From a virus (lineage: Duplodnaviria; Caudoviricetes), in IMG/VR virus record IMGVR_UViG_3300023296_001079, positions 147 to 64,146 of that record: DNA of 64,000 bases; one strand, written 5' to 3'. Numbering within the stretch: the first letter of the stretch is position 1; each line of letters starts with the position of its first letter. Made by a program: the position numbers and the translations under genes. Below, piece by piece: positions 2 to 63,749 of this stretch. The notes under the pieces were generated by a model. That model was not told the DNA's origin and ran no database searches. It saw only the letters and a program-made list of their open reading frames with translations.

Positions 2-1237
2 CTGGAGGAGGCCACCCTTCGGGGTGAGGACATTACGACCTTCGCCAAGAGAGTTGTTCGGGACGTCATATCGGTGGGCCGATTCGGATCCCTGGTGGAT
101 TTCGATGAATCCATGGAGAAGCCCTTTGTGGCCGGATACCGGGCGGAGAACATCATAAACTGGCGGGTCACCGTGATTGACCGCCGTCCCGTGGTGACGC
201 TTATCGTTTTAAAGGAGGCCGCCTACGCCCCGGATGCTGATGACCCCTTCGCCACGGTCGAGGTGGAACGGTGGCGGGTTCTCCTCCTGGGGCACGCTGA
301 AGCAGAGGACGTTGGGCCCCTGGTGTATTCCCAACAGGTTTGGGAGAAGCGGGAGGAGGACAAGGACCCGATGCAAATTGGCGGGACGATCATTCCCACC
401 CGCCGGGGGAAGCCTCTGGAGAAGATTCCGTTCACGTTCTTTGGGCCCTTCGACCTGTCGCCAGACCCACAGAAGGCTCCTCTTCTGGACCTTTCAGACG
501 TCAATCTGTCCCATTATCGGACCAGCGCGGAACTGGAGGAGGGGGCATACTTCACCGGGCTGCCAATGTATTGGGTGGCTGGCCGTATGCAGGGCTCACA
601 GGATGAAGGAGAGGTGGAGTTCACCGTTGGGTCACGGCAGGCCCTACTCCTGGAAGAAGGGTCCACAGCGGGCGTCCTGTCGGTTGACGGCGGGGACATG
701 GGAATCCTGAAGACCCTTATGGACGACAAGGAAAAGCGAATGGCCGTCCTGGGGGCCCGAATCCTGGAGGACCAGAAGGCCGGGGTTGAGGCAGCCGCCA
801 CGGTGACCATGCGGCACGCCGGGGAGAGCAGCCTTCTGTCCAGTATTTCCGGGACGTGCTCCAAGGGCATGGCCCAGGTGGTGGAGGACCTTGTCTGGTG
901 GGACGGGGTGGAGCCCAAGGATATTGGCTTCGAGTTGAACAAGGACTTCATTTCCGGGCAGATCGCCCCCTCCGAGTTGGTCCAGCTAGTGGCGGCCTAT
1001 CAGCAAGGGGCCTTGGGCCCAAAGGCCTTCTTTAAAGCCATGCAAGATGGGGAGCGGGTTCCTCATGAATGGACCCTGGAGGACTGGCTGAAGGACATTG
1101 ACGATGGCCGGGAGTTGCTGGACGCTCAAATGGCCAACGAGGACGATGGTGACGAAGAGGACGACGAAGAGGACGACGACCAGGGCGGGGACGACAAGAA
1201 AAAGTCCCCCAAGGACGACACCACCAAGGATAAATAA
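2..1237 (+). CDS. Portal protein (DUF4055-like), C-terminal part; the 5' part is at the far end of the window
   Basis: Frame is open from position 2 (LEEATLRGEDITTFAKRVVRDVISVGRFG). Motifs GRFGSLVD, YRAENIINW, IPFTFFG, PLLDLSDVNLSHYRTSA are typical of DUF4055 portals; acidic C-terminal tail; lies between terminase and MuF. Confidence 0.9.
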   Translation: MEEATLRGEDITTFAKRVVRDVISVGRFGSLVDFDESMEKPFVAGYRAENIINWRVTVIDRRPVVTLIVLKEAAYAPDADDPFATVEVERWRVLLLGHAEAEDVGPLVYSQQVWEKREEDKDPMQIGGTIIPTRRGKPLEKIPFTFFGPFDLSPDPQKAPLLDLSDVNLSHYRTSAELEEGAYFTGLPMYWVAGRMQGSQDEGEVEFTVGSRQALLLEEGSTAGVLSVDGGDMGILKTLMDDKEKRMAVLGARILEDQKAGVEAAATVTMRHAGESSLLSSISGTCSKGMAQVVEDLVWWDGVEPKDIGFELNKDFISGQIAPSELVQLVAAYQQGALGPKAFFKAMQDGERVPHEWTLEDWLKDIDDGRELLDAQMANEDDGDEEDDEEDDDQGGDDKKKSPKDDTTKDK

Positions 1238-1240
1238 TCC

Positions 1241-9691: not shown

Positions 9692-9731
9692 GCCCCCGGC
9701 GGGAGTCCAGGCCTGCCGGGGGCACTTTTTT
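9692..9731 (+). terminator. Rho-independent terminator after the scaffold gene
   Basis: GCCCCCGGCGGG...CCTGCCGGGGGC stem followed by ACTTTTTT. Confidence 0.7.
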
Positions 9732-9802
9732 GTTTGGGTAGTGTCTCAGTTTGAAATTTGAAGTTTATCCGGTCAGTTCCTATGTTATGCTTAGCGCAAA
9801 GC

Positions 9803-9994
9803 ATGGAGGAACCAGTGGATACATACGCAGAGATTTTGGCTGACGCAAAGAAAACACAGATGGAAGCTGCTCGATCACTGGCAAAGATTAATGCGAGCGG
9901 AGATGACAGCAGTGAGGCCGTGATAACTATGCTAAAGGAAAACATCATTGCCTGTCAGCAGATTATTGATCGGTTAGGTGGTCACAATGCCTAA
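9803..9994 (+). CDS. IS passenger: small helical hypothetical protein
   Basis: ORF overlapping the next gene; start uncertain (9782 or 9803). Confidence 0.45.
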   Translation: MEEPVDTYAEILADAKKTQMEAARSLAKINASGDDSSEAVITMLKENIIACQQIIDRLGGHNA

Positions 9995-10232
9995 AGGACC
10001 AAAGGGAGAAAAGCGCCCCGCTGACGCAATTGGCCTTGCAGTGATGATTGGCAAGATCGCCACTGGCGAAGTTGACGACGAAACCCCTGATGATGGCAAA
10101 GACCCCGCCGCAAAAGCGATGGGTGCTAAGGGCGGCAAGGCGCGTGCGGCTAAGCTGACGCCAGAACAGCGGTCGGAGATTGCCAAGAATGCCGCGTCAA
10201 AGCGGTGGGATGCCAAAAAGAATAGAATTTGA
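9987..10232 (+). CDS. IS passenger: small basic protein of the type commonly next to IS1-family transposases
   Basis: MPKGPKGEKRPAD...GKDPAA.AMG.KGGKARAAKLTPEQRSEIAKNAASKRW. Confidence 0.8.
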   Translation: MPKGPKGEKRPADAIGLAVMIGKIATGEVDDETPDDGKDPAAKAMGAKGGKARAAKLTPEQRSEIAKNAASKRWDAKKNRI

Positions 10233-10303
10233 ATAAGAACTGTTGATTTTGCAAAAACAGTATGACAAAACTTGCCTGAAGATATCACAGCAGGCAGATA
10301 CCT

Positions 10304-10921
10304 ATGAACCAGTACAGCGAAGACGAAGTAAAGCAGCAACTCACGCCCTATCATGATCGCATCCGCGATGTGGTTGAGCGCGGATATGCTGACTGGGTTC
10401 AGATCAAAAAATTTATGGCGAAAAACAGCATTGGTCCGGTGTTATACCCGCGAACCGTGGCGAACTTTGTCTTTGATGCGGTTGTTCAGCACGCTCTGAT
10501 TGAGTTTGCTGAAGATGAAGGTGTCCGGGTCAAAAAAGAAGCTCAAACCGTGAAGTTTTGCTTTGATGATGTCGTCCTTGCGCGGTTCAAAAAGGGCGAT
10601 GAAGACAATCTCGGCCAAAACCAACCGACACAAGCAGTGATCAACTTTGTTGAAGCACAAAATATTTTTCCGGGACTCCCGCCATCAGCCGCAAAAGTAA
10701 AATTTCTTTTCTCCGCTGATGCTATTGAAGGCGGCATTGATCGTGTCGTTGTCGCGGCGCGTGACGGGGATACTCTACTTTGGCATTACGATTTGGACGA
10801 TATTGCCGAAAGCAACGGCACCGTGCCTTTCCCAACACCAATTGCCCCAATCGAAGACATCGAAAAAATTGTATCCCTGCGCAATCGCAAGGGCGATGCT
10901 GACGAAAACGAGAGCAGTTAA
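10304..10921 (+). CDS. IS passenger: hypothetical protein, putative toxin/effector partner of the Xre-ImmA gene
   Basis: 205-aa ORF with LARFKK motif, ending 2 nt before the Xre-ImmA gene; this pairing is typical of COG2856-associated two-gene modules. Confidence 0.6.
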   Translation: MNQYSEDEVKQQLTPYHDRIRDVVERGYADWVQIKKFMAKNSIGPVLYPRTVANFVFDAVVQHALIEFAEDEGVRVKKEAQTVKFCFDDVVLARFKKGDEDNLGQNQPTQAVINFVEAQNIFPGLPPSAAKVKFLFSADAIEGGIDRVVVAARDGDTLLWHYDLDDIAESNGTVPFPTPIAPIEDIEKIVSLRNRKGDADENESS

Positions 10922-10923
10922 TC

Positions 10924-12000
10924 ATGGCAACTCGTGGAAGCTTGCTGCGCTTGGCGCGGCACCTTAGGGGATTCAACCAGAAGAAGTCTGCGGAGCTATT
11001 GGGAGTGGCGCAGGCCGTTTATTCCCGAATGGAAAACGATCTCGTAGAGACGGACGACGTAATAATTTCGCTGGCTGCAAAATCATTCGACTTGCCACCA
11101 AACTTTTTTAATCTGGAAGACACGGTTTATGGCCCGCCTGTGAGTGTTCACACGATGCGTAGAGGGAACTCGCAAGTGACCGCTCGTGATGTTGATATGA
11201 TCACGGCAGAGTTGAACCTAAGACTGATACACCTTCGCCGCTTTCTGGATAACATCGACATTACCCCTTCCTTGAGTGTCCCCAGACTCGACGTCGAGCG
11301 CTATGAGTCACCCGCAGATATTGCCGATATGGTGCGACGCCACTGGCAAATGGATTCTGGGCCAGTTCACAATTTAACACGCTTACTTGAGCGCGCGGGT
11401 GTGGTTGTTGGGTATTCAAATTTTCATGGCGCGGGGGTGAGCGGCGTTACGTTTTCAGCGCCCGGACAGCACCCGCTCATTCTAATTAATCCAGATCACC
11501 CGGCAGATAGAGTTCGCTTCACATTGGCCCATGAATTAGGCCACTTGGTCATGCACCGCTTCCCAACCCCTGAAATGGAAGTTGAGGCCAACCATTTCGC
11601 GTCAGTATTTCTTTTCCCGCGTAGAGACTTGAAAACAGCGTTTAGAGGAAGAAAGGTAACTTTGTCTTTGCTGGCTGCGCTCAAGCCGGAATGGAAAGTG
11701 TCTATGCAGGGTATATTGTATGTGGCTCAGAGAGAAAATCTTATCACAAAAAACCAAGCTCGGTATCTGTGGGCACAAATCAGCTCTAATGGCTGGAAAA
11801 CTAGAGAGCCATCGAGCCTTGATTTTGAACATGATCGCCCTTCGGTTTTGCCAACGATCATAAAGTCTATGCTTGATGACCTTGGTTTTGAGAAAGATGA
11901 AGTATTGAGCATGTCGAGGGTTTATCAGAAAGACTTTGATCTGCTCTATCCAATGCCAAAAGAGACTGAACAGCGGCCACGATTGCGTATTATAAATTGA
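10924..12000 (+). CDS. Xre HTH fused to ImmA/IrrE (DUF955, COG2856) metallopeptidase
   Basis: N-terminal LRLARHLRGFNQKKSAELLGVAQAVYSRME HTH; RFTLAHELGH (HExxH) and E.EANHFAS..L.P. Confidence 0.92.
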   Translation: MATRGSLLRLARHLRGFNQKKSAELLGVAQAVYSRMENDLVETDDVIISLAAKSFDLPPNFFNLEDTVYGPPVSVHTMRRGNSQVTARDVDMITAELNLRLIHLRRFLDNIDITPSLSVPRLDVERYESPADIADMVRRHWQMDSGPVHNLTRLLERAGVVVGYSNFHGAGVSGVTFSAPGQHPLILINPDHPADRVRFTLAHELGHLVMHRFPTPEMEVEANHFASVFLFPRRDLKTAFRGRKVTLSLLAALKPEWKVSMQGILYVAQRENLITKNQARYLWAQISSNGWKTREPSSLDFEHDRPSVLPTIIKSMLDDLGFEKDEVLSMSRVYQKDFDLLYPMPKETEQRPRLRIIN

Positions 12001-12040
12001 CATTATATGCTTGACGCCAAGCAAGAAAGTTCATATTAAA

Positions 12041-12937
12041 ATGAGTATGAACAAGCTCGACATCAAAACCCGCACAATGATCCTGAACATGATGGTTGAG
12101 GGCAGCTCTATGCGCTCCATCAGCCGCGTTGTGGGTGTGTCGATCAACACAGTCACCAAGCTGTTGATTGAGGCGGGTGAGGCTTGTGCTGCCTACCATG
12201 ATGAGACGGTGCGCAACGTAGGATCGACCCGTGTTGCGTGTGATGAAATCTGGTCGTTCTGCTACGCCAAAAACAAGAACGTCCAGACAGCCAAGGCCGC
12301 ACCTGATGGCGCTGGCGATGTTTGGACATGGACTGCAATCGACGCAGATAGCAAAATGATCCTGTCCTATGAGGTTGGTGATCGTTCCGCAGATACCGCC
12401 CACGAATTTATGTTTGATCTGCGTGACCGTCTGAGCAACCGCGTTCAGCTTACCGCAGACGGCCACAAAGCGTATCTCAGCGCAGTAGAGGGCGCGTTTG
12501 GTACAGACGTTGACTATGCGATGCTGGTCAAGCTGTACGGCGACCAGGCAGGCTCAAAGGGCCACGAAAAGAAGTACAGCCCCGCAGAGTGCACAGGCAT
12601 CAAGAAAGAAGCCATCATGGGCCAGCCGATCAAGGAACTGGTCAGCACGTCCTATGTTGAACGCCAGAACCTCACGATGCGCATGGGTATGCGCCGCTTC
12701 ACCCGCCTGACAAACGGGTTCAGCAAGAAGTTGGAAAACCACCTGCACATGCTGTCACTGTATTTTGTGCATTACAACTTTGTACGTATCCACAAGACGC
12801 TGAAAATGACACCTGCGATGGCTGCTGGTGTATCCGACACGTTGCGTGACACGGCTTGGATTGTTAGCTTGATTGATGCCCGTGCGCCTGCTCCGAAAAA
12901 GCGTGGACCTTACAAAAAGAAAGAGATTTCAAACTGA
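12041..12937 (+). CDS. IS1-family DDE transposase
   Basis: N-terminal HTH (GSSMRSISRVVGVSINTV); CDEIWSF, LTADG..AY, TSYVERQNLTMR..RRFTRLTNGFSKK; stop codon lies within the right inverted repeat. Confidence 0.93.
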   Translation: MSMNKLDIKTRTMILNMMVEGSSMRSISRVVGVSINTVTKLLIEAGEACAAYHDETVRNVGSTRVACDEIWSFCYAKNKNVQTAKAAPDGAGDVWTWTAIDADSKMILSYEVGDRSADTAHEFMFDLRDRLSNRVQLTADGHKAYLSAVEGAFGTDVDYAMLVKLYGDQAGSKGHEKKYSPAECTGIKKEAIMGQPIKELVSTSYVERQNLTMRMGMRRFTRLTNGFSKKLENHLHMLSLYFVHYNFVRIHKTLKMTPAMAAGVSDTLRDTAWIVSLIDARAPAPKKRGPYKKKEISN

Positions 12938-12951
12938 GACACTACCTTTGT

Positions 12952-12980
12952 TTGACATAGGTAAACCCATCCTTTAAAGT
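12952..12980 (+). promoter_or_regulatory. Sigma70-type promoter (conserved phage early-type)
   Basis: TTGACA-17-TAAAGT; near-identical to 53951-53979 and 49436-49464. Confidence 0.8.
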
Positions 12981-13014
12981 GATTCTTGAGACAGATAAAC
13001 AGGAGAACAGACCG

Positions 13015-13122
13015 ATGGCCCGCCAGAAGTTCGTTAATGTAGGAGCCCGCGACATTCTCATAAATCATGAGGGGGACGTGGCTTGGCAGGTTGTCATTGA
13101 ACAGACGAGAAGGCCCCTTTAA
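13015..13122 (+). CDS. 35-aa moron ORF (MARQKFVNVGARDILINHEGDVAWQVVIEQTRRPL)
   Basis: Own promoter, leader AAACAGGAGAACAGA and a terminator-like hairpin at 13108-13138; too short for the ORF track. Confidence 0.55.
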   Translation: MARQKFVNVGARDILINHEGDVAWQVVIEQTRRPL

Positions 13123-15056: not shown

Positions 15057-16004
15057 ATGGGATTCGGTGACGAGATTATGGCCACGGCCTATGCCAAGGC
15101 CGTGGTGAAGAAATACCCCGAGGCCAAGGCCATCTTCGGGGACCCCAAGAACCACCTGGATGCAGGGACTAACACTTTAAAGGTTAGCTTCTCGGAGGTG
15201 TTCCTGAACAACCCCCACATTCTGCAAGAGGGCGAGGCCATCAAGGACTTCGTTTGCATTCCGGATTATCCGGGCTGCCGGATGTATGTGGACTACGAGA
15301 AGTCCCAGACGGAGGGCAACAAGATAATGGCCTTCTCCTGGAACCCTGAATTTAGGGCCGCCCGGGGCCAGCTATTCTTCACAGACCAGGAGAAGTCCGT
15401 GGCGGCGGCCATCGTCGCCCGCCTGCCTTTCCCGTTCTATGCCATAGAGCCGAATGTGGCAGGCAAGGACTGGATCAACAAGAAGGCCTGGGCCTGGGAC
15501 CGGTGGCAGGCCGTGGTGGACCAGACCGTGGCTCACTCTGTTGGGGGTGACGAGGCCTTTCCCTGGGTCCAATTAAGCGGACCTCACCTTGCCGGGGTTG
15601 TCGGACTGGAGAACCTGCCCTTCAGGGTGGCCTGTGCGGTCCTGTCATGCGCGAACGGCCTCCTGACTACTGATGGGGCCCTTCACCATGCGGCAGCGGC
15701 CCTGGGCGTCCCCGCTGTGGTCCTGTGGGGCCATTACTCGTCCCCCACTACTTTCGGGTACGAGGATCAGGTCAACCTGCGGGAATCAGACAGAATGAGT
15801 CTGGGCTGTGGGACGACATACGGGGAATGCCCCGAGTGCCCCAAGTCGATGGCGGCCATCACGGTCCCCCAGGTCCTGAAGGCCCTGGTGGCCATAACGA
15901 ACCCGGACAGCCCCAAGGCCTACAAGTTCCAGGAGGACCCGGGAGGACCGCCCCCTATCTTTAAACCGGTGTCCGGATACGGTAAGGAAAAGCCCTATGT
16001 ATGA
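15057..16004 (+). CDS. Glycosyltransferase family 9 (heptosyltransferase-like)
   Basis: GFGDEIMAT and TTDGALHHAAAALGVPAVVLWG; C-terminal CxxC..C cluster. Confidence 0.85.
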   Translation: MGFGDEIMATAYAKAVVKKYPEAKAIFGDPKNHLDAGTNTLKVSFSEVFLNNPHILQEGEAIKDFVCIPDYPGCRMYVDYEKSQTEGNKIMAFSWNPEFRAARGQLFFTDQEKSVAAAIVARLPFPFYAIEPNVAGKDWINKKAWAWDRWQAVVDQTVAHSVGGDEAFPWVQLSGPHLAGVVGLENLPFRVACAVLSCANGLLTTDGALHHAAAALGVPAVVLWGHYSSPTTFGYEDQVNLRESDRMSLGCGTTYGECPECPKSMAAITVPQVLKALVAITNPDSPKAYKFQEDPGGPPPIFKPVSGYGKEKPYV

Positions 16005-16851
16005 AGTTGGAATCTTCAGGCCTCTGGACGGCCCCTGGGATCACTCGTCCTTCCTGACTTCCTTTGCCCGAGGGGTGAAGGAGAAGGGGGACAACGCCAG
16101 GGTCCATAACCTGGAGGAAGGATACCAGGACTGTGACGTGGCTGTGGTCTTCGGCCTCCCCAAGTTTTCCGTCCCTGCCTCCTGGGCCCGGGGCTCCATA
16201 ATCTATGAGCACCGATACCGCCGGAAGAAAAACGTCTTGATAATGGAGCGGGGATTCATCAAGCGGGATACCCATTACGGGGTGGCCCTGAACGGCCTGA
16301 ACGGCCTGGGGGACTTCGGGTCCAAGGACAGCCCTGCCGACCGGTGGAACAGGCTGGGGGCGGAGATTAAGCCCTGGCGGCCCCCGAACGAGGACGGTTA
16401 CTTCCTCCTCTGTGGTCAGGTCCCCTGGGACGCCACCGTCCAGCATACGAAGCATGCCCAATGGTGTCAGGCAGCCTTTAAAGCCATACAGGGGGAAGGT
16501 CACAAGGTCAGGTTCCGACCACACCCGGACGTCAAAGAGTATGACTACGGCCTGGAGGCCTCCAAGGCTTCCTGGGAGGAGGACCTTGACGGGGCCAATG
16601 CTGTGGTGACCTTCTCGTCCACCTCCTCTGCCCTGGCCGTCCTGGAGGGGATTCCTATATTCGCCCTGGACCGTGGCTCCATAGCGTACCAGATCGCCAA
16701 CCAGGAACTGTCCCCTGAGACCCTGGCCGTCCCTGGCCTTGCGTTCAGGGACCAGTGGGCCTGGGACCTAGCCTATTCACAGTGGACCGAGGAGGAGATG
16801 GCCGGGGGACAGCCCTGGGAGCAACTCCGTTCGGCCATGTCCGCCAGCTAA
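15997..16851 (+). CDS. KpsS/KpsC-like (Capsule_synth) beta-Kdo-transferase-like glycosyltransferase
   Basis: IMERGF, GQVPWD (QxxxD), RPHP (HP motif), VTFSSTSSALAVLEGIP. Confidence 0.8.
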   Translation: MYEVGIFRPLDGPWDHSSFLTSFARGVKEKGDNARVHNLEEGYQDCDVAVVFGLPKFSVPASWARGSIIYEHRYRRKKNVLIMERGFIKRDTHYGVALNGLNGLGDFGSKDSPADRWNRLGAEIKPWRPPNEDGYFLLCGQVPWDATVQHTKHAQWCQAAFKAIQGEGHKVRFRPHPDVKEYDYGLEASKASWEEDLDGANAVVTFSSTSSALAVLEGIPIFALDRGSIAYQIANQELSPETLAVPGLAFRDQWAWDLAYSQWTEEEMAGGQPWEQLRSAMSAS

Positions 16852-16870
16852 TGGAAGGTGGGGGTCAATA

Positions 16871-17668
16871 ATGAATCCGGACAGGGTAGCGGACGCCATC
16901 GTCTTCGTAGGCTGGGACCCTCTGGACGCCCAGGCCTTCCGGGTGGCTCTCCAGTCCATGTGGGAGACTTCCCCCGAGGTTCGGGAGGGGTCAATAATTG
17001 TGGAGCCTTTGGTCCAAGCTGACCTTCGGAGGCGGGGCCTATACTCCAGGTGCTTTCAGACTTTAGCTAACGGGCAGAAGATGGACCTGGGGGATAATTG
17101 CCCCCACTCCACGGAGTTCTCCTACACTCGATTCTTGACCCCACACCTTGCGATGGCCCGGGGAATCACCAAGGCGCTGTTCGTGGACGCGGATGTCATG
17201 TTCCTGGGTAATGTGGCGGACCTGTTCGCCCTGGCGGACGCGAAGAAAATGGTCCAGGTGGTGAAGCACGATATGGTATTGGACCCCGACCGGGGACCTA
17301 AGATGGGGGTCTTTTTCCAGTCGGAATATGAGAAGAAGAATTGGTCCTCTGTTATGCTGTTTCCGGACGCCAGGAAACTGTCCGACTGTTTGAATCCCTT
17401 GACGGTATCGTCCACCCACCGGAACTACCTCCACCAGTTTGGCTGGGTAGAGGACAAGGCCATAGGGGCCCTTCCGGAGCACTGGAACTGGCTGGAGGGG
17501 TACAGTAAATCCGCAGCGGCCCCTTGCCATTCCCTGGTCCACTTCACCCGGGGCACCCCGGACATGATTAAGGACGTGGACCCCGTCCTTGGGTCTAGGT
17601 GGGACGAGTTCTCCGACCGGGCGGGCTCTGCTATGTACCCCTTTGGATGGGGAGCCTTAATGGCATGA
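16871..17668 (+). CDS. GT-A glycosyltransferase (GT8/CDI-like)
   Basis: FVGWDP, STEFSYTRF..P, FVDADVMF (DxD), KNWSSVMLF, LP..WNWL, HFTRGTP. Confidence 0.85.
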   Translation: MNPDRVADAIVFVGWDPLDAQAFRVALQSMWETSPEVREGSIIVEPLVQADLRRRGLYSRCFQTLANGQKMDLGDNCPHSTEFSYTRFLTPHLAMARGITKALFVDADVMFLGNVADLFALADAKKMVQVVKHDMVLDPDRGPKMGVFFQSEYEKKNWSSVMLFPDARKLSDCLNPLTVSSTHRNYLHQFGWVEDKAIGALPEHWNWLEGYSKSAAAPCHSLVHFTRGTPDMIKDVDPVLGSRWDEFSDRAGSAMYPFGWGALMA

Positions 17669-18318
17669 GTTACTTCTCCAGGGACCTGAACATGGTCTTC
17701 ATTCATATCCCCAAGAACGCGGGGACGTCGATTCACCGGACCCTGACCGATTTGGTCCCGGACCTGGAAGCCTTCGACGCCACGGACGCCCTCCACCGGG
17801 AACAGCGTCACCCAGCCTTCGCCAACCATTTCCCCATGCCCATGGCCAATGCTCTCTGCCGGTATTTCATCCCGGACTTTGACCCTTTAAAGGCCACCTC
17901 CTTCATGGTGGTCCGGAATCCCTGGGAGCGTATGGTTTCCCTGTTCGAGCACAGGAAGCGAAAGAAGGATTTATTCTACGAGGGGAACCCCAGGAACTCT
18001 GGGCCGGACAAGGTGGCCCTGGCCAAAGGATTCAAATACTGGCTGATGGAGTCCCCCTCGCCGGGGGACTCCATCCTGACACGGACCCCCCAAATGGACT
18101 GGGGACCGGTGACCCATACCCTAAACTTCAATGACGATTTACTTGGTCAGTGGGTGGACTTGATTCACGGCCTGGGCCTGCCTACGGTCAACCTTGTCCA
18201 GGCCAACACAGGCAAGGGCGAATCCTCCAAGTATCGCTCCTACTACGACATTGAATCTTTTGGGTTCGTCCGGGACAGGTTCAAGAAAGACATTGAGGAA
18301 TTCAATTATGCCTTTTGA
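17665..18318 (+). CDS. Carbohydrate sulfotransferase (Sulfotransfer_2)
   Basis: FIHIPKNAGTSI (5'-PSB motif) and VVRNPWERMVS (3'-PB motif). Confidence 0.88.
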   Translation: MSYFSRDLNMVFIHIPKNAGTSIHRTLTDLVPDLEAFDATDALHREQRHPAFANHFPMPMANALCRYFIPDFDPLKATSFMVVRNPWERMVSLFEHRKRKKDLFYEGNPRNSGPDKVALAKGFKYWLMESPSPGDSILTRTPQMDWGPVTHTLNFNDDLLGQWVDLIHGLGLPTVNLVQANTGKGESSKYRSYYDIESFGFVRDRFKKDIEEFNYAF

Positions 18319-19291
18319 TTTTAGCTTCCCGGACAGTGCCTCCCACCCTGAGTGGGACGTTCCGAGGTCTCCGGACAATTGGCACCTCCCCGTTTCGGCA
18401 GAGGTTGGAGTTTATATGGTTGAAGCCCAAGGGGCCTTCGGACGGGCCCATGAATTTTTGGGCCGGCAGATCGAGGCACAGGCCCTTTTACAGGACCAAT
18501 ACCACAGCGTCCTGGGGGCCTTCCGCCGGTATGCGGCCTTTCAGAATCCCCCCAAGGATAACTTCCTGTGGCATTCCGGATATTTAGCCTATCGGGACGA
18601 GAATCCGCTGGCGGGTCTGTTCCTGTCGGAACTCCAGCACCTTTCCCAGATGGAGGTCACCTACCCCCTGCCCATAAAGAAGATCGACAGGACCATGGCT
18701 TGCTCCAAGACCAAGACCCAGGCGGTCCAGGACTACCTCCAGAGCCTCCCCCTATGGCACCATGTAGCGGACTACTTTGGGCACCACCCCAACGTCAAGA
18801 CGGTCCAGGCCCACCTGTCCCGTCCAGGCGACCGGCACCACCGGCAGACCTTCCGGGACCTCCCCCATGAAGGCAAGCTTCTGAACCTGCACGTTGACCC
18901 CAAGCCGGGCGTCATTAAGGCCATCATCTACCTGGGAGAGGTTGGGACCTGTCACGGGCCCTTCCAGATTCTTCCCGCCTCCAAGGACATGGGGGAATCC
19001 ATGTTCCAGAGAATTGTGGCCTGGGGAAACTCCACTGGGAACTACTGCCACACGCCCGAGCACAGGCGGGCCATGGGGGCCCTGCCTGCACCCTGGCGCG
19101 TCAACGCTATTGTGGGAAAGCTAATCCCGGACGATTCCGAGGACTTCAAGAACTTCACCGGGCCGAAAGGCCTCCGGACCATCACCAGCGATATCGCCAA
19201 CGTCATCGTGTTTGACCCCGCCTGGAACTTCCACAGGGGTGGACTGGTGGAGGAGGGCGAACGCTTCAATCTTCAGGTGACAATCCAATGA
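18308..19291 (+). CDS. 2OG-Fe(II) dioxygenase-like protein (PhyH-like)
   Basis: LHVD (HxD), KAIIYL...GPF..LP.S, VFD...FHRGG....ER. Confidence 0.7.
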   Translation: MPFDFSFPDSASHPEWDVPRSPDNWHLPVSAEVGVYMVEAQGAFGRAHEFLGRQIEAQALLQDQYHSVLGAFRRYAAFQNPPKDNFLWHSGYLAYRDENPLAGLFLSELQHLSQMEVTYPLPIKKIDRTMACSKTKTQAVQDYLQSLPLWHHVADYFGHHPNVKTVQAHLSRPGDRHHRQTFRDLPHEGKLLNLHVDPKPGVIKAIIYLGEVGTCHGPFQILPASKDMGESMFQRIVAWGNSTGNYCHTPEHRRAMGALPAPWRVNAIVGKLIPDDSEDFKNFTGPKGLRTITSDIANVIVFDPAWNFHRGGLVEEGERFNLQVTIQ

Positions 19292-20031
19292 CCGCTTTAA
19301 AACTATCTCACGAGGTTCTGGCCCGCCGGGTATACCGGGAAGACGTCAACATGGGACTGGCCGCCAACACCATCATGAAGTTCGTGGTTCCTCTCCTGGA
19401 CCCCCTGAAGGTGGCCCTGGATGTAGGGGCAGCCACTGGCCACATTACCAACATCATCGCCCCCCACGTTTTCCGGGTCTATGGATTCGAGGCGGTCCTT
19501 CCGGTGTTCTTTCAATATTGCAAAATGCAGGACCGGTGGGACAACGTGGTCCCGGTCTATGGAGCGGTGGGCTCCGACATGGGGACGGCTGAGTTCTTCG
19601 TGGATGACAAGCGCCTGTCCAACTCAGGCTTCCAGGACCTTGTGGACGGGCAGAAGACCCGAGTCCCCATGCTCTGCCTGGACCCTATGTTTGACCAGGA
19701 CGAGACGATTGGATTCGTCAAGGTGGACGTGGAGGGCAATGAGTTGGACGTCCTCCGAGGGGCGGAAGGTATCCTCCGGCGGGACCGGCCTCTTCTCATG
19801 GTGGAAATTTATAAGCCATTCTGCCCCTACCCCCTGGAGAAGGTTTTCCAGTGGATTATGGACCAGGGCTACACCTGTTTCTGGTATGTCAAGAGCCGGG
19901 GCCACATGGCCTCCTGCCACACGGCGGAAGAGGCCGCCGTGGTGTGCGTGGACAAACATGAGGAGCATGACGGGGACTTCTTGTTTGCCCCCACCCAGTT
20001 ACGCCTAGCAGAAGCCTGGAAGGGCCTTTAA
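19288..20031 (+). CDS. FkbM family methyltransferase
   Basis: LDVGAATG, YGFEA, VKVDVEGNELDVLRGA, P.LMVE. Confidence 0.9.
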   Translation: MTALKLSHEVLARRVYREDVNMGLAANTIMKFVVPLLDPLKVALDVGAATGHITNIIAPHVFRVYGFEAVLPVFFQYCKMQDRWDNVVPVYGAVGSDMGTAEFFVDDKRLSNSGFQDLVDGQKTRVPMLCLDPMFDQDETIGFVKVDVEGNELDVLRGAEGILRRDRPLLMVEIYKPFCPYPLEKVFQWIMDQGYTCFWYVKSRGHMASCHTAEEAAVVCVDKHEEHDGDFLFAPTQLRLAEAWKGL

Positions 20032-20658
20032 ATGACCAGTTCGAGTGGAGAGCGGCAGATAGGCAAGCGCCTGGACGACATAGCCCCGGACCATGTGGCC
20101 AGATATCACTGGGCGGCTAGAATGCTTCACATTAAGCTGGACAGGAAGGTCTTCGGGCCCCCCCGGATTCTGGACGCGGCCTGTGGTTGTGGGTACGGGT
20201 CAGAGGTACTGGCCCAGAGCGGGTTCAAGGTGACGGGGGTTGATATCTCCCCGGAAGCTAAAGCCTACGCCCGTCACTTCGGGGCGGGGCGGGACTGGGA
20301 CTTCCTCCAGCACGATATCCTGAACCTGGGACACCTGGGAAAGTTCGACGCGGTGGTGTCGATTGAGACGGTGGAGCATATCAACCAGGACGGGTTCTGG
20401 GTTACCCACATGCACCGGCTGGCGGACTTGGCTGTGGTCACGGTCCCCAACCAGTTGGTGACCCCGTTCACCCCCAACCAATTCAAGCACCACTTCCGGC
20501 ACTACACCCCAGACCAGTTGGGCGGTCTATTCAGGGCCCGAGATTGGAACATAGAGGAGAATGACTGGTGGACACAGAAGGGCACAAAGTGGAAGGGCAC
20601 AGATATGTCACCGGGGAAGGGGGGGAGAGTGTTGGGCATTATAGCCTCCGGCGCATAG
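20032..20658 (+). CDS. Class I SAM-dependent methyltransferase
   Basis: HVARYHWA, ILDAACGCGYGS, GVDIS, SIETVEHI, HFRHYT. Confidence 0.88.
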   Translation: MTSSSGERQIGKRLDDIAPDHVARYHWAARMLHIKLDRKVFGPPRILDAACGCGYGSEVLAQSGFKVTGVDISPEAKAYARHFGAGRDWDFLQHDILNLGHLGKFDAVVSIETVEHINQDGFWVTHMHRLADLAVVTVPNQLVTPFTPNQFKHHFRHYTPDQLGGLFRARDWNIEENDWWTQKGTKWKGTDMSPGKGGRVLGIIASGA

Positions 20659-21224
20659 CCCAACAGGTCATACTCCAGGAATCCTTGGGGCTGGTGGCCC
20701 TGGCAGACGCCCTCCCGGTGGCGGTGTTCGATGATGCGGTGAACCACCTCTGCCGACAGGGAACCGTGGTCCTGTCTGGGTTGGGGAAAAGCGGACACGT
20801 TGCCCGGAAGATATCCTCCACCATGACGTCCCTGGGGACGCGGTCTGTATACATACACCCCACCGAGGCTGCCCACGGGGACCTGGGCTTCCTGGGCCCC
20901 CAGGACGCCCTCCTGGCCCTATCCAGGTCCGGCGGGGCGGAAGAGTTGCTCCACCTGTTCCACAGGGCCAAGGATTTGAACATCCCCTCCGTCCTGATAA
21001 CGGAGGACCCCGCTTCCCGGCTGGCCAGGGTGGCGGACTTCGTCCTCCCTATTCCCAAGGTCCTTGAAGCCTGGGGCCATGCCCCTTCCACCTCAACCAC
21101 GATGCAGATGGGCCTGGGCGATGCCCTCGCTATCTGTCTGGCCCAGTTGCGCGGCTTTACCAATACGGACTTCAAGAGGACCCACCCTGGAGGGGCTCTG
21201 GGCCACCTGAAGAAGGCTGGATAG
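20568..21224 (+). CDS. kpsF: Arabinose-5-phosphate isomerase (KpsF/GutQ/KdsD SIS domain, no CBS domains)
   Basis: GLGKSGHVARKI, HPTEAAHGDLG, SRSG...EL, APSTST, GDALA, F...HPGGALG; GTG start after GAGGAG. Confidence 0.88.
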   Translation: MDTEGHKVEGHRYVTGEGGESVGHYSLRRIAQQVILQESLGLVALADALPVAVFDDAVNHLCRQGTVVLSGLGKSGHVARKISSTMTSLGTRSVYIHPTEAAHGDLGFLGPQDALLALSRSGGAEELLHLFHRAKDLNIPSVLITEDPASRLARVADFVLPIPKVLEAWGHAPSTSTTMQMGLGDALAICLAQLRGFTNTDFKRTHPGGALGHLKKAG

Positions 21225-49417: not shown

Positions 49418-49435
49418 AATAATTTCAAATAATAG

Positions 49436-49464
49436 TTGACGTAGGTAAAGGGGCCCTTTAAAGT
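49436..49464 (+). promoter_or_regulatory. Sigma70-type early promoter
   Basis: TTGACG-17-TAAAGT with AT-rich UP element. Confidence 0.8.
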
Positions 49465-49513
49465 GGTGAACATACAGAGACAGACAGAAACAAACAGGAC
49501 GGGAGACCAAGCG

Positions 49514-53774: not shown

Positions 53775-53976
53775 GAATCCAGACCTGCGGTGGTTCGAGT
53801 TGTTCGGAAGGTGCGGCGGCTGTGGACGCCCTGCGGCGGGCATTCTCCGGAACAACCTGAACGCCAACATGGGCCCGTATTGCCAGAGGTGCGCCACCAC
53901 CCGCCTGGGGAGAGCCAAGCTGGAGCGGGAGCGGCTGGAAAAGAAAGAGGTTGACATAGGTAAACCCTCCCTTTAA
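53764..53976 (+). CDS. Small Zn-finger protein
   Basis: CGGC...CQRC. Confidence 0.55.
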   Translation: MSSENPDLRWFELFGRCGGCGRPAAGILRNNLNANMGPYCQRCATTRLGRAKLERERLEKKEVDIGKPSL

Positions 53977-53979
53977 AGT
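53951..53979 (+). promoter_or_regulatory. Sigma70-type early promoter
   Basis: TTGACA-17-TAAAGT; same spacer start (TAGGTAAACCC) as the promoter at 12952. Confidence 0.8.
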
Positions 53980-54014
53980 GGTTTTATCAAAACAGAGACA
54001 GACAGGAACAACCG

Positions 54015-54791
54015 ATGAAGGCCACCAAGCACAGCAACGGAGAAGTAAAGACCATCGACCTGAAGGCTGCCAAGACCAAGAAGCCCTCCATGGGCGGCAC
54101 CCAGGTGAAAGTTGTCGCCCGCAAGCCTGCCGTCAAGAACGTGGCCGTGGCCAAGAAAGCGAACGCCAAGAAGGCCAAGGCCATCAAGAACCCCGTCCAG
54201 GTGACGCGGGAGCAGTGGCTCCGCCGGATTGTCGCGATGGCGCGGCCCATGTTCGAGAAGGCCGGGTCTCCGTTGCCTGCACCCGAGAAGTTGAGGGTGG
54301 CCATAGGGCTCCCGTCCGGCTCCCGCAAGGCACGCGGCCAGTGCTTCCGTAGCGTCTGTGCGGCGGACGGCGGACGTGAGTTGTGGGTGTCTCCCACGAT
54401 TGGCGGGGCCGGTGACGAGATAAAGTTTATCTCCACCATGGTCCATGAGTTGTGCCACGCGGCCCTGGAAGACGAGGTTGGCCACACGGCACCCTTCGTC
54501 CGGCTGGGGACGGCCATGTTCCTGGAGGGCAAGCCCACCCACATGATCGGCGAGAACAGCGAGGCCTTCACCAAGGTCTGGGAGCCCATCATCAAGAAGG
54601 TTGGCCCATATCCCGGGGTGGCGTTCAATCCGGGTTCGGCCGAGAAGACCCAGAAGACCCATTTGGTCAAGGTCGCCTGCAACGATGGCGAGTGTGGAGC
54701 GGTCTTCCGGATCACAGCCAAGTGGATTGACGCCGCAGAGGGCGGCCTGACCTGCCCCGTCTGCAAGTCCGATGACCTGGGGGTGGGTTAA
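54015..54791 (+). CDS. SprT-like zincin metallopeptidase with Lys-rich N-tail and Zn ribbon
   Basis: RGQCF, VHELCHAA...GH...F, C-terminal C....C...R....W.......CPVC. Confidence 0.8.
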   Translation: MKATKHSNGEVKTIDLKAAKTKKPSMGGTQVKVVARKPAVKNVAVAKKANAKKAKAIKNPVQVTREQWLRRIVAMARPMFEKAGSPLPAPEKLRVAIGLPSGSRKARGQCFRSVCAADGGRELWVSPTIGGAGDEIKFISTMVHELCHAALEDEVGHTAPFVRLGTAMFLEGKPTHMIGENSEAFTKVWEPIIKKVGPYPGVAFNPGSAEKTQKTHLVKVACNDGECGAVFRITAKWIDAAEGGLTCPVCKSDDLGVG

Positions 54792-54796
54792 GACCT

Positions 54797-54816
54797 GGAG
54801 GCCCTTCGGGGCCTCC
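54797..54816 (+). terminator. UUCG hairpin (terminator or stabiliser)
   Basis: GGAGGCCC-TTCG-GGGCCTCC; weak U-tract. Confidence 0.55.
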
Positions 54817-54848
54817 TCTACCCTTTAAATGAAACAGGAGAACAGATT

Positions 54849-55589: not shown

Positions 55590-55593
55590 ACCC

Positions 55594-55613
55594 GGGAGCC
55601 CTTCGGGGCTCCC
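55594..55613 (+). terminator. UUCG hairpin (terminator or stabiliser)
   Basis: GGGAGCCC-TTCG-GGGCTCCC. Confidence 0.55.
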
Positions 55614-55650
55614 CCTTCCCCCTTTAAAGGAGGCGGCGAGGGCAACCACG

Positions 55651-55878
55651 GTGCGAGATTTTACCTTTTGCTTTTCATATGGCCATGGCCATCCGGCCCT
55701 GACCCTGATCGCCACAACCCCGGCAGGGGCGGAGGTCTTCTTACTGGAGACAGACACGGGTTGGAGAGTGTCCTACCCTGAGACGACGATTCCCGAGGGA
55801 AACACGTTCCTGCCTGCTATCGTCCTGGCCGCTGCCCGGTGGGCTCGACGCCAGCGCCGGTCCCGTGGCAAAAGCTAA
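55651..55878 (+). CDS. Hypothetical protein
   Basis: 75-aa ORF, GTG start after GAGGG. Confidence 0.45.
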   Translation: MRDFTFCFSYGHGHPALTLIATTPAGAEVFLLETDTGWRVSYPETTIPEGNTFLPAIVLAAARWARRQRRSRGKS

Positions 55879-56023
55879 AACCCGCCGGACCCGGAAACTG
55901 CGGCGGGGCGCAAAAGCTAAACAGAACCATGGAGAAGGGGCCACCCGGACGCACAAGGCCCGGGCAGGCCGTACAGGGGCCATCCGGTCCAAGAATCTGA
56001 GGAGTCGAAAGGGACGAAAATGA
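55865..56023 (+). CDS. 52-aa highly basic (protamine-like) protein
   Basis: MAKAKTRRTRKLRRGAKAK...RSRKGRK; stop overlaps the MTase ATG. Confidence 0.5.
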   Translation: MAKAKTRRTRKLRRGAKAKQNHGEGATRTHKARAGRTGAIRSKNLRSRKGRK

Positions 56024-56790
56024 AACAAAACACTTCCCACGCTGTCATGTCACAGGCCTCCCCTCAGAGCCGCCTGGGGCGGAACTTCTTCCCCACGCCC
56101 CCCTGGGCCACCAGGGCCCTGGTCAACTATCTCACGGTCGCTTACGGCCGCCCAGGGGACTGTTGGGACCCGGCGGCGGGTGAGGGCCACATGACCGTGG
56201 CCCTGAAGGATTCCATTATGCCGGAGGCCAGCGTCTGGGGGTCCGATATATTTGACTATGGGGCAGGGTTCCCTGTCCTGGACTTCCTGGCCATGGAAAA
56301 GTCTGCCGGTCCCCTGGTGGACTGGATCATCACCAACCCGCCCTTCAACAAGGCCGTGGACTTCGCCCACAGGTGCCTGGACCTGCAACCGGTGGGCGGG
56401 TTCGCCTTGCTGGTTCGGACCACATGGCTGGAAGGCGGGAAGCGTTACGAGGCCCTATTTCGCCACAATCGGCCCAGCTATGTTATGGTTTTCACGGAGC
56501 AGGTCCCCATGCTGGAAGGGGTCCTGAATCCCAAGGCCTCCTCCGCCACGTCCTATTCGTGGTTTGTCTGGGATACGGAGAAGCCGGGGCATGACCTTTC
56601 CAGGCCGGGCGGACAGACCAAGACAGTTTGGTTTCCGCCAGGGACCCGGAAGAATTTTGAGAGGGCCGGAGATTATGACCCCCTGACCCCAGCCCAGAGG
56701 ACGGCGGACGGAGTCAAGGGGTATGAGGTGGCGATGGAGGCTCTACGAAAAGCTAAAGAGGAGAAGGAAGGTGGCCCCTTTAAAGCTTGA
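56020..56790 (+). CDS. DNA amino-methyltransferase (probably N6-adenine)
   Basis: FFPTPPW, WDPAAGEG (SAM binding), IITNPPF (catalytic motif IV). Confidence 0.88.
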   Translation: MKQNTSHAVMSQASPQSRLGRNFFPTPPWATRALVNYLTVAYGRPGDCWDPAAGEGHMTVALKDSIMPEASVWGSDIFDYGAGFPVLDFLAMEKSAGPLVDWIITNPPFNKAVDFAHRCLDLQPVGGFALLVRTTWLEGGKRYEALFRHNRPSYVMVFTEQVPMLEGVLNPKASSATSYSWFVWDTEKPGHDLSRPGGQTKTVWFPPGTRKNFERAGDYDPLTPAQRTADGVKGYEVAMEALRKAKEEKEGGPFKA

Positions 56791-58999: not shown

Positions 59000-59130
59000 A
59001 GAAGAAGGAGTGGAAGTGGGCCGTCTTCATGTGGAGCATGTGGGGGGCGGCGGTGTGCGTGTTCCTGGGGATCATTGCCCTGGGAATATGGGTTCTGGTC
59101 CATGTGGCTTCAGGTGGCTGCCCCACATGA
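58996..59130 (+). CDS. Small membrane protein
   Basis: ATGA-coupled; KKKEWKW followed by a hydrophobic helix. Confidence 0.5.
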   Translation: MKKKEWKWAVFMWSMWGAAVCVFLGIIALGIWVLVHVASGGCPT

Positions 59131-59668: not shown

Positions 59669-59676
59669 AGGAGACG

Positions 59677-61432: not shown

Positions 61433-61435
61433 CCC

Positions 61436-61807
61436 ATGAGGGAGAGCCTTCTGGCCCAGAACATCCAAAAGCTGCCCGGGGTGTTCTGGGTCCGGATAGA
61501 AAATAAACTTGCGGGTGGATTGCCGGATGCTATAGGTACATTTTACGGCCACACATTTTTTGCAGAGTTCAAGAGCCTGGACCGGTACTCTGAGAAGTTA
61601 GGGGCGACCAAGGAGCAACTGTTATGGCACAGAAGGTGGAACCGGCACGGAGGCGTGGCGCTGTTCATGATGAAGGCAAGGGAGGAGTTCCTTTGCGTGC
61701 GGCACAGCGACGGGGGAAACTCGATTCTGGCCTGCGGAAAGGCTTTAAAGCCCGTCTTCGGGAAGCAGTCCCTGTTGAGGATGTTGTACCTTGCGAGTTT
61801 GAGGTGA
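61436..61807 (+). CDS. VRR-NUC/PD-(D/E)xK nuclease (Holliday junction resolvase-like)
   Basis: MRES, RIEN....GLPD, FAEFK, Q..WH. Confidence 0.85.
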   Translation: MRESLLAQNIQKLPGVFWVRIENKLAGGLPDAIGTFYGHTFFAEFKSLDRYSEKLGATKEQLLWHRRWNRHGGVALFMMKAREEFLCVRHSDGGNSILACGKALKPVFGKQSLLRMLYLASLR

Positions 61808-62494: not shown

Positions 62495-63725
62495 GAAGGC
62501 CACCCCGGAACAGGTTCACGACCTCCTCTATAATTGGCGATATTGGGCACGACCAGACCAGAGGCTTCCACCGGGGGCCTGGGTCACATGGTTGATTCTG
62601 GCAGGTCGAGGGTTCGGTAAGACCAGGACCGGGGCAGAGACTGTCCGGGCATTTGGACAATCCAAGACCTACAAACGCATGGCCTTGATTGCCCCAACGG
62701 CGGACGATGCCAGGGCCGTTATGGTGGAGGGCGAATCCGGTATTCTGGCTTGCAGCCCGCCCGGGGACCTCCCTTTGTACGAGCCGAGTAAGCGCCGACT
62801 TACCTGGGCGAGCGGGGCAATAGCCACCCTGTATTCAGCGGACGAGCCCAGACGCCTCCGTGGACCACAACATGACTTTGTCTGGGCGGACGAGATTTGC
62901 GCCTGGGAGTATCCAGAGACCTGGGACATGGCCCAGTTCGGCCTGCGGCTGGGCCACAACCCCCGGGCAATGGTTACGACCACCCCCAAGCCCGGCAGGC
63001 TGTTGAAGGGCCTTATGGAGGGCCTGGGGACCCATGTGACCCGGGGCAGCACCTACGCCAACCGTGACAACCTAGCGCCGGTATTCTTCCAGACGATTGT
63101 GAAGAAGTACGAGGGGACACGCCTGGGCCGCCAGGAACTGAACGCGGAAGTCCTGGACCAAGCAGAGGGAGCCTTGTGGACCAGGGACCTTGTTGAGAAG
63201 ACCAGGAGGAGCGACCACCCAGAGTTCAAGCGGGTGGTGGTGGGAGTTGATCCGGCGGTCACCAAGACGGACACCTCAGACGAGGTTGGTCTGATCGTTG
63301 GGGCCCTGGGAGTCGATGACAATGGCTATATTTTGGCAGACATGTCGGCCAAGATGACGCCCAACGAGACCTGCAAGAACGCTGTTGGTGCTTTAAAGGC
63401 CTGGGACGGTGACCGGATTGTGGCCGAGGTGAACAACGGCGGGGACTGGATTGAGTTGGGCCTGCGGCAGGTTGACAAAAACGTCCCATACAAGAAACTA
63501 CACGCCAGCCGAGGGAAGAAAGCCCGAGCGGAACCGGTGGCCGCCCTGTTCGAGCAACACCGTTGCCATTTGGTGGGCTCTTTCCCTGAATTAGAGGATG
63601 AACTATGTTCTTGGGAGCCGGACGGCAAGAGTGCAAGCCCGAATCGGCTGGACGCTTTGGCCTGGGTTGTCACCGAGTTGATGATTTCTGGCTCCGGTGC
63701 CTCTACCATGAGAGTCCGAGCCTAA
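62388..63725 (+). CDS. Terminase large subunit
   Basis: LAGRGFGKTRTGAE, LRGPQH..WADE, TTTPK, GTRLGRQEL, VGVDPA, SPNRLDA. Confidence 0.95.
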   Translation: MLKETPLESLSSPENSSFINSTLSLETEKEREAFIRKATPEQVHDLLYNWRYWARPDQRLPPGAWVTWLILAGRGFGKTRTGAETVRAFGQSKTYKRMALIAPTADDARAVMVEGESGILACSPPGDLPLYEPSKRRLTWASGAIATLYSADEPRRLRGPQHDFVWADEICAWEYPETWDMAQFGLRLGHNPRAMVTTTPKPGRLLKGLMEGLGTHVTRGSTYANRDNLAPVFFQTIVKKYEGTRLGRQELNAEVLDQAEGALWTRDLVEKTRRSDHPEFKRVVVGVDPAVTKTDTSDEVGLIVGALGVDDNGYILADMSAKMTPNETCKNAVGALKAWDGDRIVAEVNNGGDWIELGLRQVDKNVPYKKLHASRGKKARAEPVAALFEQHRCHLVGSFPELEDELCSWEPDGKSASPNRLDALAWVVTELMISGSGASTMRVRA

Positions 63726-63749
63726 AGGGCTATATTGGGATTTAAAGCC

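Follow-up and report, generated by a model that had tools for sequence, protein, structure and literature searches.

Short DNA words that recur throughout a genome are known from several settings. HIP1 (GCGATCGC) is a property of the cellular genomes of cyanobacteria and is linked to cognate methyltransferases. The stoperators of cluster A mycobacteriophages are asymmetric 13-mers that are oriented with transcription and lie mostly in the intergenic DNA of temperate phages, and the uptake signal sequences and DNA uptake sequences (USS/DUS) and Chi are non-palindromic, often oriented host-chromosome words that mark DNA as self. The matS, NBS and SBS arrays, read by MatP, Noc and SlmA, have one site per tens of kilobases and belong to cellular chromosomes. 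Phages normally purge type II restriction sites, and the loss of palindromes is expected in them. Here we describe an array of the palindrome TTTAAA that runs through a phage genome, IMG/VR virus record IMGVR_UViG_3300023296_001079. The window, which is the whole 64,000-nucleotide stretch analyzed, comprises all but 146 bases of this 64,146-bp single-contig record. Our analysis supports the array as a selected, phage-specific cis-signal that is read at the DNA level.

208..63746, no strand assigned: TTTAAA array of 74 sites, 47 of which are CTTTAAAG; consensus S-C-TTTAAA-G-S

Like HIP1, the array is built of an 8-bp palindrome that stands about a hundredfold over expectation, occurs about once per kb, lies mostly within genes in several frames and uses unusual codons. 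Unlike HIP1, it is confined to a phage lineage, sets an AT core within GC-rich DNA and is regularly spaced, and a cognate methyltransferase could not be found. The initial annotation had named HIP1 as a precedent; the statistics match, but the host-wide distribution of HIP1 is not matched in 201 alphaproteobacterial genomes. Stoperators resemble the array in that dozens of one short site are spread genome-wide and also occur at an early promoter (here three promoters and 71 other sites), whereas the window site is palindromic and mostly coding, and no integrase or repressor was recognized among the ~55 open reading frames (ORFs), of ~85, that were scanned with Pfam, PHROG and NCBIfam. A kilobase-scale density and a placement that looks like selection for coverage are shared with USS/DUS and Chi, from which the phage motif differs in being palindromic and rare in alphaproteobacterial genomes. 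The matS, NBS and SBS sites offer another likeness as short dimer-bound palindromes, present in tens of copies, that work by chromosomal distribution; no homologs of the organizers MatP, Noc and SlmA were found in the window. The NTTTAAAN series of type II sites (DraI, TTTAAA; PmeI, GTTTAAAC; SwaI, ATTTAAAT) has the same core and symmetry, and here too the outer base pair alone differs between lineages. In contrast to what is usual for such sites, TTTAAA accumulates in the window phage, which otherwise purges 38 of the 64 palindromic hexamers; a cognate enzyme could not be identified. Full-text literature searches for the motif or for highly iterated palindromes in phages returned no description, nor did term searches of the main texts of the papers on phages R5C, Pan1 and R26L, which carry a sister motif, find a mention of it, although the supplementary files might contain one. 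To our knowledge, no counterpart of an evenly tiled, reader-coupled palindrome array has been described in phages. The iterated genomic motif is known in kind, and the mechanism underlying the phage array may well be new.

An exact count confirmed the 74 copies of TTTAAA that the initial annotation had listed. Its claim that this number lies far above composition also held, with the correction that base composition alone predicts 4.5 copies and not the 3–4 it had assumed; TTTAAA is the most over-represented of all hexamers (16-fold). Dinucleotide shuffles contained 5.53 ± 2.30 copies (maximum 11; 0/100 reached 74), and CTTTAAAG, present 47 times, was expected 0.46 ± 0.85 times. A codon-preserving shuffle had been proposed as the decisive check, and the excess persisted when it was run. 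In 300 permutations of synonymous codons within each gene, with proteins and codon usage kept, TTTAAA fell to 20.8 ± 2.1 copies (range 15–26) and CTTTAAAG to a mean of 8.5 (maximum 14). About 20 of the TTTAAA in this shuffle mean were intergenic or stop-codon copies left unshuffled, and the procedure is conservative because the codon pool itself is inflated by the motif. Shuffling of codon order had the same outcome, and none of the 600 codon shuffles came near the observed count. The shuffle tests therefore rule out a chance or compositional origin of the excess.

The TTTAAA core is preceded by C at 63 of the 74 sites and followed by G at 57, and G or C is weakly preferred at ±2. The site is perfectly palindromic, without asymmetric flanking information, and the sites are not embedded in a longer palindrome, hairpin or inverted repeat. 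As there is no information beyond these flanks, the unit is an 8-bp palindrome. Among its one-off variants, those at the outer positions were enriched and those in the core were at or slightly below expectation (12 versus ~16), with no clear depletion.

By our own gene calls, 39 sites are written xCT-TTA-AAG and 15 TTT-AAA, another 5 contain the TAA stop codon of a gene and the other 15 fall between genes, which bears out the earlier description of mostly coding copies in different frames. The motif writes 37 of the 111 Leu-Lys dipeptides (33%) and 15 of the 44 Phe-Lys dipeptides (34%), so that the reading frame is irrelevant and the 39:15 ratio only mirrors dipeptide abundance. Compatible peptide contexts are near saturation. 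Among Ala/Pro-Leu-Lys tripeptides, 24 of 30 are written GCT/CCT-TTA-AAR, and where Phe-Lys is followed by a G-initial codon the full octamer is found in 13 of 22 cases. Ala-Leu-Lys occurs 19 times against 9.4 expected (2.0-fold; 15 as GCT-TTA-AAR) and Pro-Leu-Lys 11 times against 4.4 (2.5-fold; 9 as CCT-TTA-AAR). Because these tripeptides exceed their amino-acid expectation, the motif has altered protein sequences besides codon choice. The near-saturation argues that more sites are better in the window phage. Fifteen sites lie at most 50 nt upstream of a start codon, compared with 4.9 expected, and several of these adjoin a Shine-Dalgarno sequence or make TAAATG stop-start overlaps. Site placement indicates a preference for cheap locations, intergenic ones first and then compatible codons.

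Site density is 1.22 per kb in the structural half and in the replication half of the genome alike. The one large exception is an insertion of lower GC content.

9700..12950, plus strand: inserted element, composite, 3.2 kb, 49% GC, zero motif copies

As had been claimed, the motif is missing from this insertion; there is no TTTAAA between 9086 and 12973, the interval that spans it. With the insertion removed, the gaps between sites had a coefficient of variation (CV) of 0.73 versus 0.98 for random placement (P = 0.003), and the largest gap was 2749 bp. Even spacing with few close pairs, which is more pronounced in the relatives described below, argues for selection on coverage rather than mutational drive.

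The nearest overall relatives in the phage collection are R5C, R26L and Pan1 (Nanhaivirus). They are distant (25–47% amino-acid identity) and syntenic with the window in the structural and replication modules, which in the window comprise the following genes.

Structural and packaging genes: DUF4055 portal, 1816-aa MuF-domain protein, tail tube protein, tape measure protein and large terminase
Replication genes: SNF2 helicase, AEP primase, three UvrD/RecD-type helicases and family A DNA polymerase

The Nanhaiviruses carry the TTTAAA core with its flanks swapped, (C)GTTTAAAC(G), in 17–20 copies in R5C and R26L, where the octamer is expected 0.2–0.4 times per Nanhaivirus sequence. In R5C, 17 of 19 TTTAAA are GTTTAAAC and 12 are CGTTTAAACG; the octamer accounts for all 20 copies in R26L and all 10 in the 50 kb of Pan1 that were examined. 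The flanks have thus changed between lineages (C..G in the window, G..C in Nanhaivirus) while the TTTAAA core is constant. Spacing is highly regular in R26L (gaps of 1326–6127 bp, CV 0.36, P < 5e-5; minimum gap, P = 0.0005) and Pan1 (CV 0.34, P = 0.0013) and also even in R5C (CV 0.59, P = 0.016). Eight of the 10 R5C sites for which the region could be aligned across the motif are kept in R26L and 2 are lost; the kept sites include some in regions of only 67%, 71% and 78% identity. Assigned by hand from coordinates, 7 of the 20 R26L sites are intergenic and the 13 coding ones divide 6:6:1 between two frames and a stop codon, and the R5C coding sites divide 7:6 between two frames. Of the hexamers composed of A and T alone, TTTAAA contributes 20 of 53 in R26L and 19 of 69 in R5C. 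Homology breakpoints between R5C and R26L showed no clear pattern at motif sites. R5C and R26L infect Dinoroseobacter shibae, and Pan1 was reported on a cyanobacterium; R5C is described as lytic. The Nanhaivirus octamer has a G at both outer positions. In all three phages, genes are annotated for a 7-deazaguanine pathway (QueC/D/E, FolE and a transglycosylase resembling DpdA), for which the window phage has no homologs.

The excess stands against a background of palindrome avoidance. In the window, 38 of the 64 palindromic hexamers occur at less than 0.15 of expectation and about 20 are wholly absent. Deficits versus codon shuffles include GTCGAC (0/36, observed/expected), GGCGCC (0/37), GCCGGC (3/45), CGGCCG (2/40), CAGCTG (0 versus 21) and CTGCAG (0 versus 19). 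Other palindromes are untouched or enriched (GGGCCC, 77 copies; TGGCCA, 69; CCCGGG, 64; CCATGG, 52; GACGTC, 52), and several 4-bp cores are tolerated only in combination with particular outer bases. The count of GACGTC compares with 41.7 in codon shuffles, and GGACGTCC is the second most enriched palindromic octamer, with 13 copies versus 1.8 by composition. A by-product of depleted neighbors was rejected as the source of the TTTAAA excess, as GTTAAC, CTTAAG and TTCGAA are each absent where only 7–10 copies were expected.

In the other phages, contigs and bacterial genomes sampled the excess was not found. Brevundimonas phage Delta and Pseudomonas phage PaMx11 contain 0 TTTAAA in 50 kb of each, and MD18, Cp1R7A-A1, Mwe-JY26, RcXuper and BDU-MI-1 (101–149 kb, with related portals or helicases) contain 0–1 sites each versus 3–14 for the reversed control. 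DSL-LC04 (52% GC), whose SNF2, primase, helicase and polymerase module is 31–36% identical to that of the window, has 14 TTTAAA versus 9.6 expected, without the flanks. In the same phage (OR003939.1, 1–50000), TTTGCAAA occurs 8 times versus 0.65 expected, which could be unrelated or an analogous AT-armed palindrome. Among related phages, R5C, R26L and Pan1 have the sister motif, and eight others show no such excess. No consistent motif was seen in the best 80 IMG/VR and best 80 metagenome loci listed with related terminases (at most 59% identical); 66–68% identical relatives returned by a protein search were not among the matches listed by these terminase-profile scans of IMG/VR and metagenome contigs. 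The terminase was rejected as the determinant of the motif, because contigs with terminases closer than the Nanhaivirus ones lack it. In three alphaproteobacterial genomes, CTTTAAAG occurs 1, 9 and 13 times versus 27, 92 and 83 for the reversed control and is thus 7- to 27-fold rarer. A wider sample of 201 genomes across Alphaproteobacteria, including the unpublished genome G043, held at most 32 copies of GCTTTAAAGG per genome, compared with 18 in the 64-kb phage (both orientations), although the true host possibly lies outside this sample. In these hosts and their phages, depletion of the motif is therefore the normal state, from which the window phage and the Nanhaiviruses depart.

The claim of a selected, phage-specific cis-signal has accordingly gained support, as the excess survives the shuffles, is near saturated, indifferent to frame, even and missing from the insertion, and has a sister motif in relatives. 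Symmetry, frame indifference and lineage-specific flanks on a fixed core point to a double-stranded DNA signal read by a symmetric protein of the phage lineage, as do the partly conserved positions, the preference for cheap locations and the even coverage. We tentatively favor a reading in which the sites are docked by a non-catalytic, phage-encoded symmetric binding protein and the array organizes or marks the chromosome, with an operator role at three promoters. In this mechanism, a symmetric, probably homodimeric phage-encoded protein would recognize CTTTAAAG on double-stranded DNA, and selection would keep at least one site per roughly 1–3 kb so that the whole phage chromosome is marked or organized. 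Where a site lies over the −10 box of an early promoter, binding would also shut off early transcription, and the reader would be expected to coevolve with the motif flanks. That the reader is non-catalytic and phage-encoded, and what its binding brings about, we infer from this pattern. The three promoters are listed below; that the motif lies over their −10 boxes, as the initial annotation had proposed, was found at 12973, 49457 and 53972.

12946..12981, plus strand: early-type promoter TTGACA-N17-TAAAGT, with its −10 box inside CTTTAAAGT; motif at 12973
49430..49465, plus strand: promoter TTGACG-N17-TAAAGT, overlapping the motif at 49457, upstream of small ORFs from 49514
53945..53980, plus strand: promoter TTGACA-N17-TAAAGT, overlapping the motif at 53972, upstream of the SprT-like gene

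A search for −35 boxes (TTGACA with at most 1 mismatch, 16–18 bp upstream) matched 7 of the 74 sites on the plus strand and 0 of 74 on the minus strand, with 1.2 expected per strand; besides the three promoters, four plus-strand sites have a one-mismatch box. Downstream of the promoter at 12973 there is only a 35-codon ORF (13015–13122), followed by a GC hairpin with a TTTAAAC loop near 13118 and then a T-run. This unit lies shortly before the capsid gene and may specify a small peptide or a small RNA.

Several observations weigh against docking by such a binding protein. A −35 box accompanies only 3 to 7 of the 74 sites, so most sites lack promoter features, and the 98 Nanhaivirus site-strands gave a single −35 match and none that was convincing. 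Evenness of spacing is only moderate in the window itself, and the near-saturation suggests a benefit from every additional site, or a mutational drive, rather than that a few sites suffice. Helix-turn-helix operators are typically longer than a contiguous 8-bp palindrome, which suits type II restriction-modification enzymes just as well as a binder. The scans of the ~55 ORFs yielded no candidate for a DNA binder with sequence specificity; ribbon-helix-helix, helix-turn-helix and other DNA-binding proteins were not recognized among them, and NCBIfam had no match for 8 window proteins. Finally, the sole non-structural protein that the window shares with the Nanhaiviruses alone, among the phages compared, is a SprT-like protease of a very large family. 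This protein and two enzymes were considered as readers.

54015..54791, plus strand: SprT-like protein; basic tail rich in Lys and Ala, HELCH motif of metalloproteases, zinc ribbon at the C terminus
56020..56790, plus strand: N6-adenine DNA methyltransferase, gamma-class (FPTPPW..DPAAGEG..NPPF)
61436..61807, plus strand: small PD-(D/E)XK nuclease, Hjc/VRR-NUC-like, with a PD..E.K motif; motif copy at 61744

The SprT-like protein is unlikely to be a specific reader and was set aside, as its family comprises 2357 clusters at E ≤ 1e-3. The methyltransferase, the sole DNA methyltransferase of the window, is most similar to a protein of Sinorhizobium phage phiLM21, gp27 (219 residues compared, 45.5% identity). 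According to one study, PhiLM21_p027 methylates GANTC, as the host CcrM does, and GANTC methyltransferases are common in alphaproteobacterial phages (PMC5537653). By this similarity the window enzyme is probably GANTC-specific (CcrM-like) and not TTTAAA-specific; GANTC itself is neither avoided nor enriched in the window (270 versus 265 expected). R5C, R26L and Pan1 have no homolog of the methyltransferase, and the amino-methyltransferase motif [DNS]PP[YFW] was absent from their real ORFs. The methyltransferase at 56020, to which the initial annotation had suggested linking the motif, was therefore rejected as its reader, being a relative of a GANTC enzyme and lacking a Nanhaivirus counterpart. 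The nuclease has weak homologs in all three Nanhaiviruses (E = 4e-4), and that it reads or cuts the motif is speculative. Its resemblance to Hjc and VRR-NUC comes from an Atlas search that gives leads only, its single-sequence fold was poor (mean pLDDT 51) and a word-index search found no homologs. Five phages without the motif gave no match to the nuclease either, although an empty result of that search carries no weight. PaMx11 encodes a homolog that is 30% identical over 94 aa, yet lacks the motif. In all four phages one motif copy lies 40–60 nt before the 3′ end of the nuclease gene (61744 in the window; L094:26844 in R5C, L097:42148 in Pan1 and L095:13910 in R26L), although these copies do not fall in the same MAFFT alignment column. 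Sequence searches of the PDB returned nothing useful for the methyltransferase, the SprT-like protein and the genes at 44281 and 43653.

Alternatively, the sites could be substrates of a phage enzyme (a nuclease, nickase, Holliday-junction resolvase or base modifier) that requires its cognate site at intervals of a few kb, for example in resolving branched replication intermediates before packaging. A contiguous 8-bp palindrome in which TTTAAA is constant and the outer base varies is reminiscent of a type II specificity series, the PD-(D/E)XK nuclease at 61436–61807 has its weak homologs in all three Nanhaiviruses, and even spacing suits a process that scans or migrates along DNA. Even so, we consider enzymatic cleavage or modification unlikely, since PaMx11 has the nuclease homolog and no motif, known junction resolvases are specific for at most 4 nt, and a genome nicked symmetrically at a distance of 6 bp within AT cores would break. 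A host reader, such as an AT-preferring alphaproteobacterial nucleoid-associated protein recruited at regular intervals, would fit TTTAAA sites being the main AT islands (20 of 53 A/T-only hexamers in R26L and 19 of 69 in R5C), and the host range does point to Alphaproteobacteria. It is distinctly improbable when set against flanks that are specific and differ by lineage (C..G versus G..C), against Pan1, which has the same flanks as the Dinoroseobacter phages despite its reported cyanobacterial host, and against the 0–1 sites in other alphaproteobacterial phages, including Phaeobacter and Rhodobacter phages, and the depletion of the motif in host genomes. Only a small chance can be given to the sites as lagging-strand priming or helicase-loading points for the AEP primase and helicase in a 60% GC genome otherwise short of AT-rich starts. 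Although the even spacing of ~0.9–4 kb is on the scale of Okazaki fragments and the primase and adjacent helicase are common to the window and the Nanhaiviruses, primases read single-stranded words of ~3 nt, for which palindromy would be purposeless, and DSL-LC04, with the closest primase (36% identity), has no TTTAAA excess although its genome is 52% GC.

A slightly smaller chance attaches to a methylation-linked, HIP1-like process in which the motif is marked by a methyltransferase and becomes more numerous through biased repair or through a function that depends on methylation. The HIP1-like statistics (an 8-bp palindrome that recurs about once per kb within genes and is not limited to a single frame) and the phage-encoded N6-adenine methyltransferase would fit such a process. 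They are countered by the 45.5% identity of that enzyme to phiLM21 gp27, shown to methylate GANTC (PMC5537653), and by the lack of both a methyltransferase homolog and [DNS]PP[YFW] in real ORFs of R5C, R26L and Pan1. The even spacing and the scarcity of close pairs (minimum gap of 1326 bp in R26L, P = 0.0005) are not as expected from a mutational drive, and core variants that differ by one base show no clear depletion (12 versus ~16). A signal at the level of RNA or translation (slippage on the heptamer U UUA AAG, pausing at rare codons, AU-rich enhancement of translation or cleavage by an RNase) is very improbable as a general explanation. Nearly all genes lie on one strand and about 15 sites abut Shine-Dalgarno sequences or form TAAATG overlaps, and RNA-level reading could apply to the subset adjoining start codons. 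Against it, two frames are used equally (33% and 34%; 7 to 6 in R5C), strict reverse-complement symmetry is needless for RNA, and sites in R26L also lie between convergent genes and in opposite-strand gene regions. That the excess reflects chance, composition or a sequencing or assembly artefact is barely conceivable, given 0/100 dinucleotide and 0/600 codon shuffles near the observed count, an agreeing Logan contig assembly and a sister motif in three phages that were isolated and sequenced separately. The Logan contig (54 kb, from a salt-lake metagenome run) matches 19 kb of the window with 1 difference, although the run is possibly the source sample and thus not fully independent.

The window phage has a GC content of ~60%, holds nearly all of its genes on the plus strand and has no tRNA genes that could be found in the window. 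Its sequence is also present in salt-lake metagenome runs. A megablast search of 12 kb of the window against the phage collection gave no match, and IMG/VR scans by exact peptide and by promoter pattern found nothing. A Roseobacter-group host is likely, as judged from sequence similarity, because the IS1-family transposase is Rhodobacterales-like, the top portal match is a Dinoroseobacter phage and the methyltransferase family is typical of alphaproteobacterial phages. The insertion that carries this transposase (80–92% identical to Rhodobacterales proteins) lies between a scaffold-like gene and the capsid gene. It also contains an ORF for a 205-aa protein without assigned function and a 358-aa helix-turn-helix and IrrE/M78 peptidase protein, which is 41–55% identical to proteins of diverse Alphaproteobacteria, Nitrospira and one actinobacterium.

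Further features lie elsewhere in the window. Within the structural region, 15057–21224 encodes GT9-like and GT8-like glycosyltransferases and a class I S-adenosylmethionine-dependent methyltransferase (20032–20658), and this block may be a virion glycosylation module. A 52-codon ORF at 55865–56023 encodes an extremely basic Arg/Lys-rich peptide, and its stop codon overlaps the start codon of the N6-adenine methyltransferase gene (ATGA). GC-rich TTCG-loop hairpins without a T-run were observed at 54790–54830 (GGAGGCCC..GGGCCTCC) and 55590–55630 (GGGAGCCC..GGGCTCCC), each followed within about 10–15 nt by CCCTTTAAA.

The window phage pays a visible cost in protein sequence and codon usage to keep 74 TTTAAA despite purging other palindromes. 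In a broader and more doubtful proposal, a clade of lytic alphaproteobacterial siphophages would tile its chromosome with an even 8-bp palindrome whose outer base pair coevolves with a phage reader, as a form of self-addressing of the replicating chromosome. Such addresses might be places where a sequence-specific junction resolvase or nuclease has to cut, or where a protein that organizes or protects the chromosome is loaded. Because the same core occurs with different flanks and regular spacing in three cultured phages, the phenomenon is heritable, evolving and testable at the bench. Identification of the reader would reveal a genome-wide cis-acting system of phage DNA metabolism, be it organization, protection, resolution or regulation. 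Evenly spaced, hyper-abundant palindromes could then be used as a computational signature for similar phage systems, and the existence of iterated palindromes such as HIP1 would become open to experiment.

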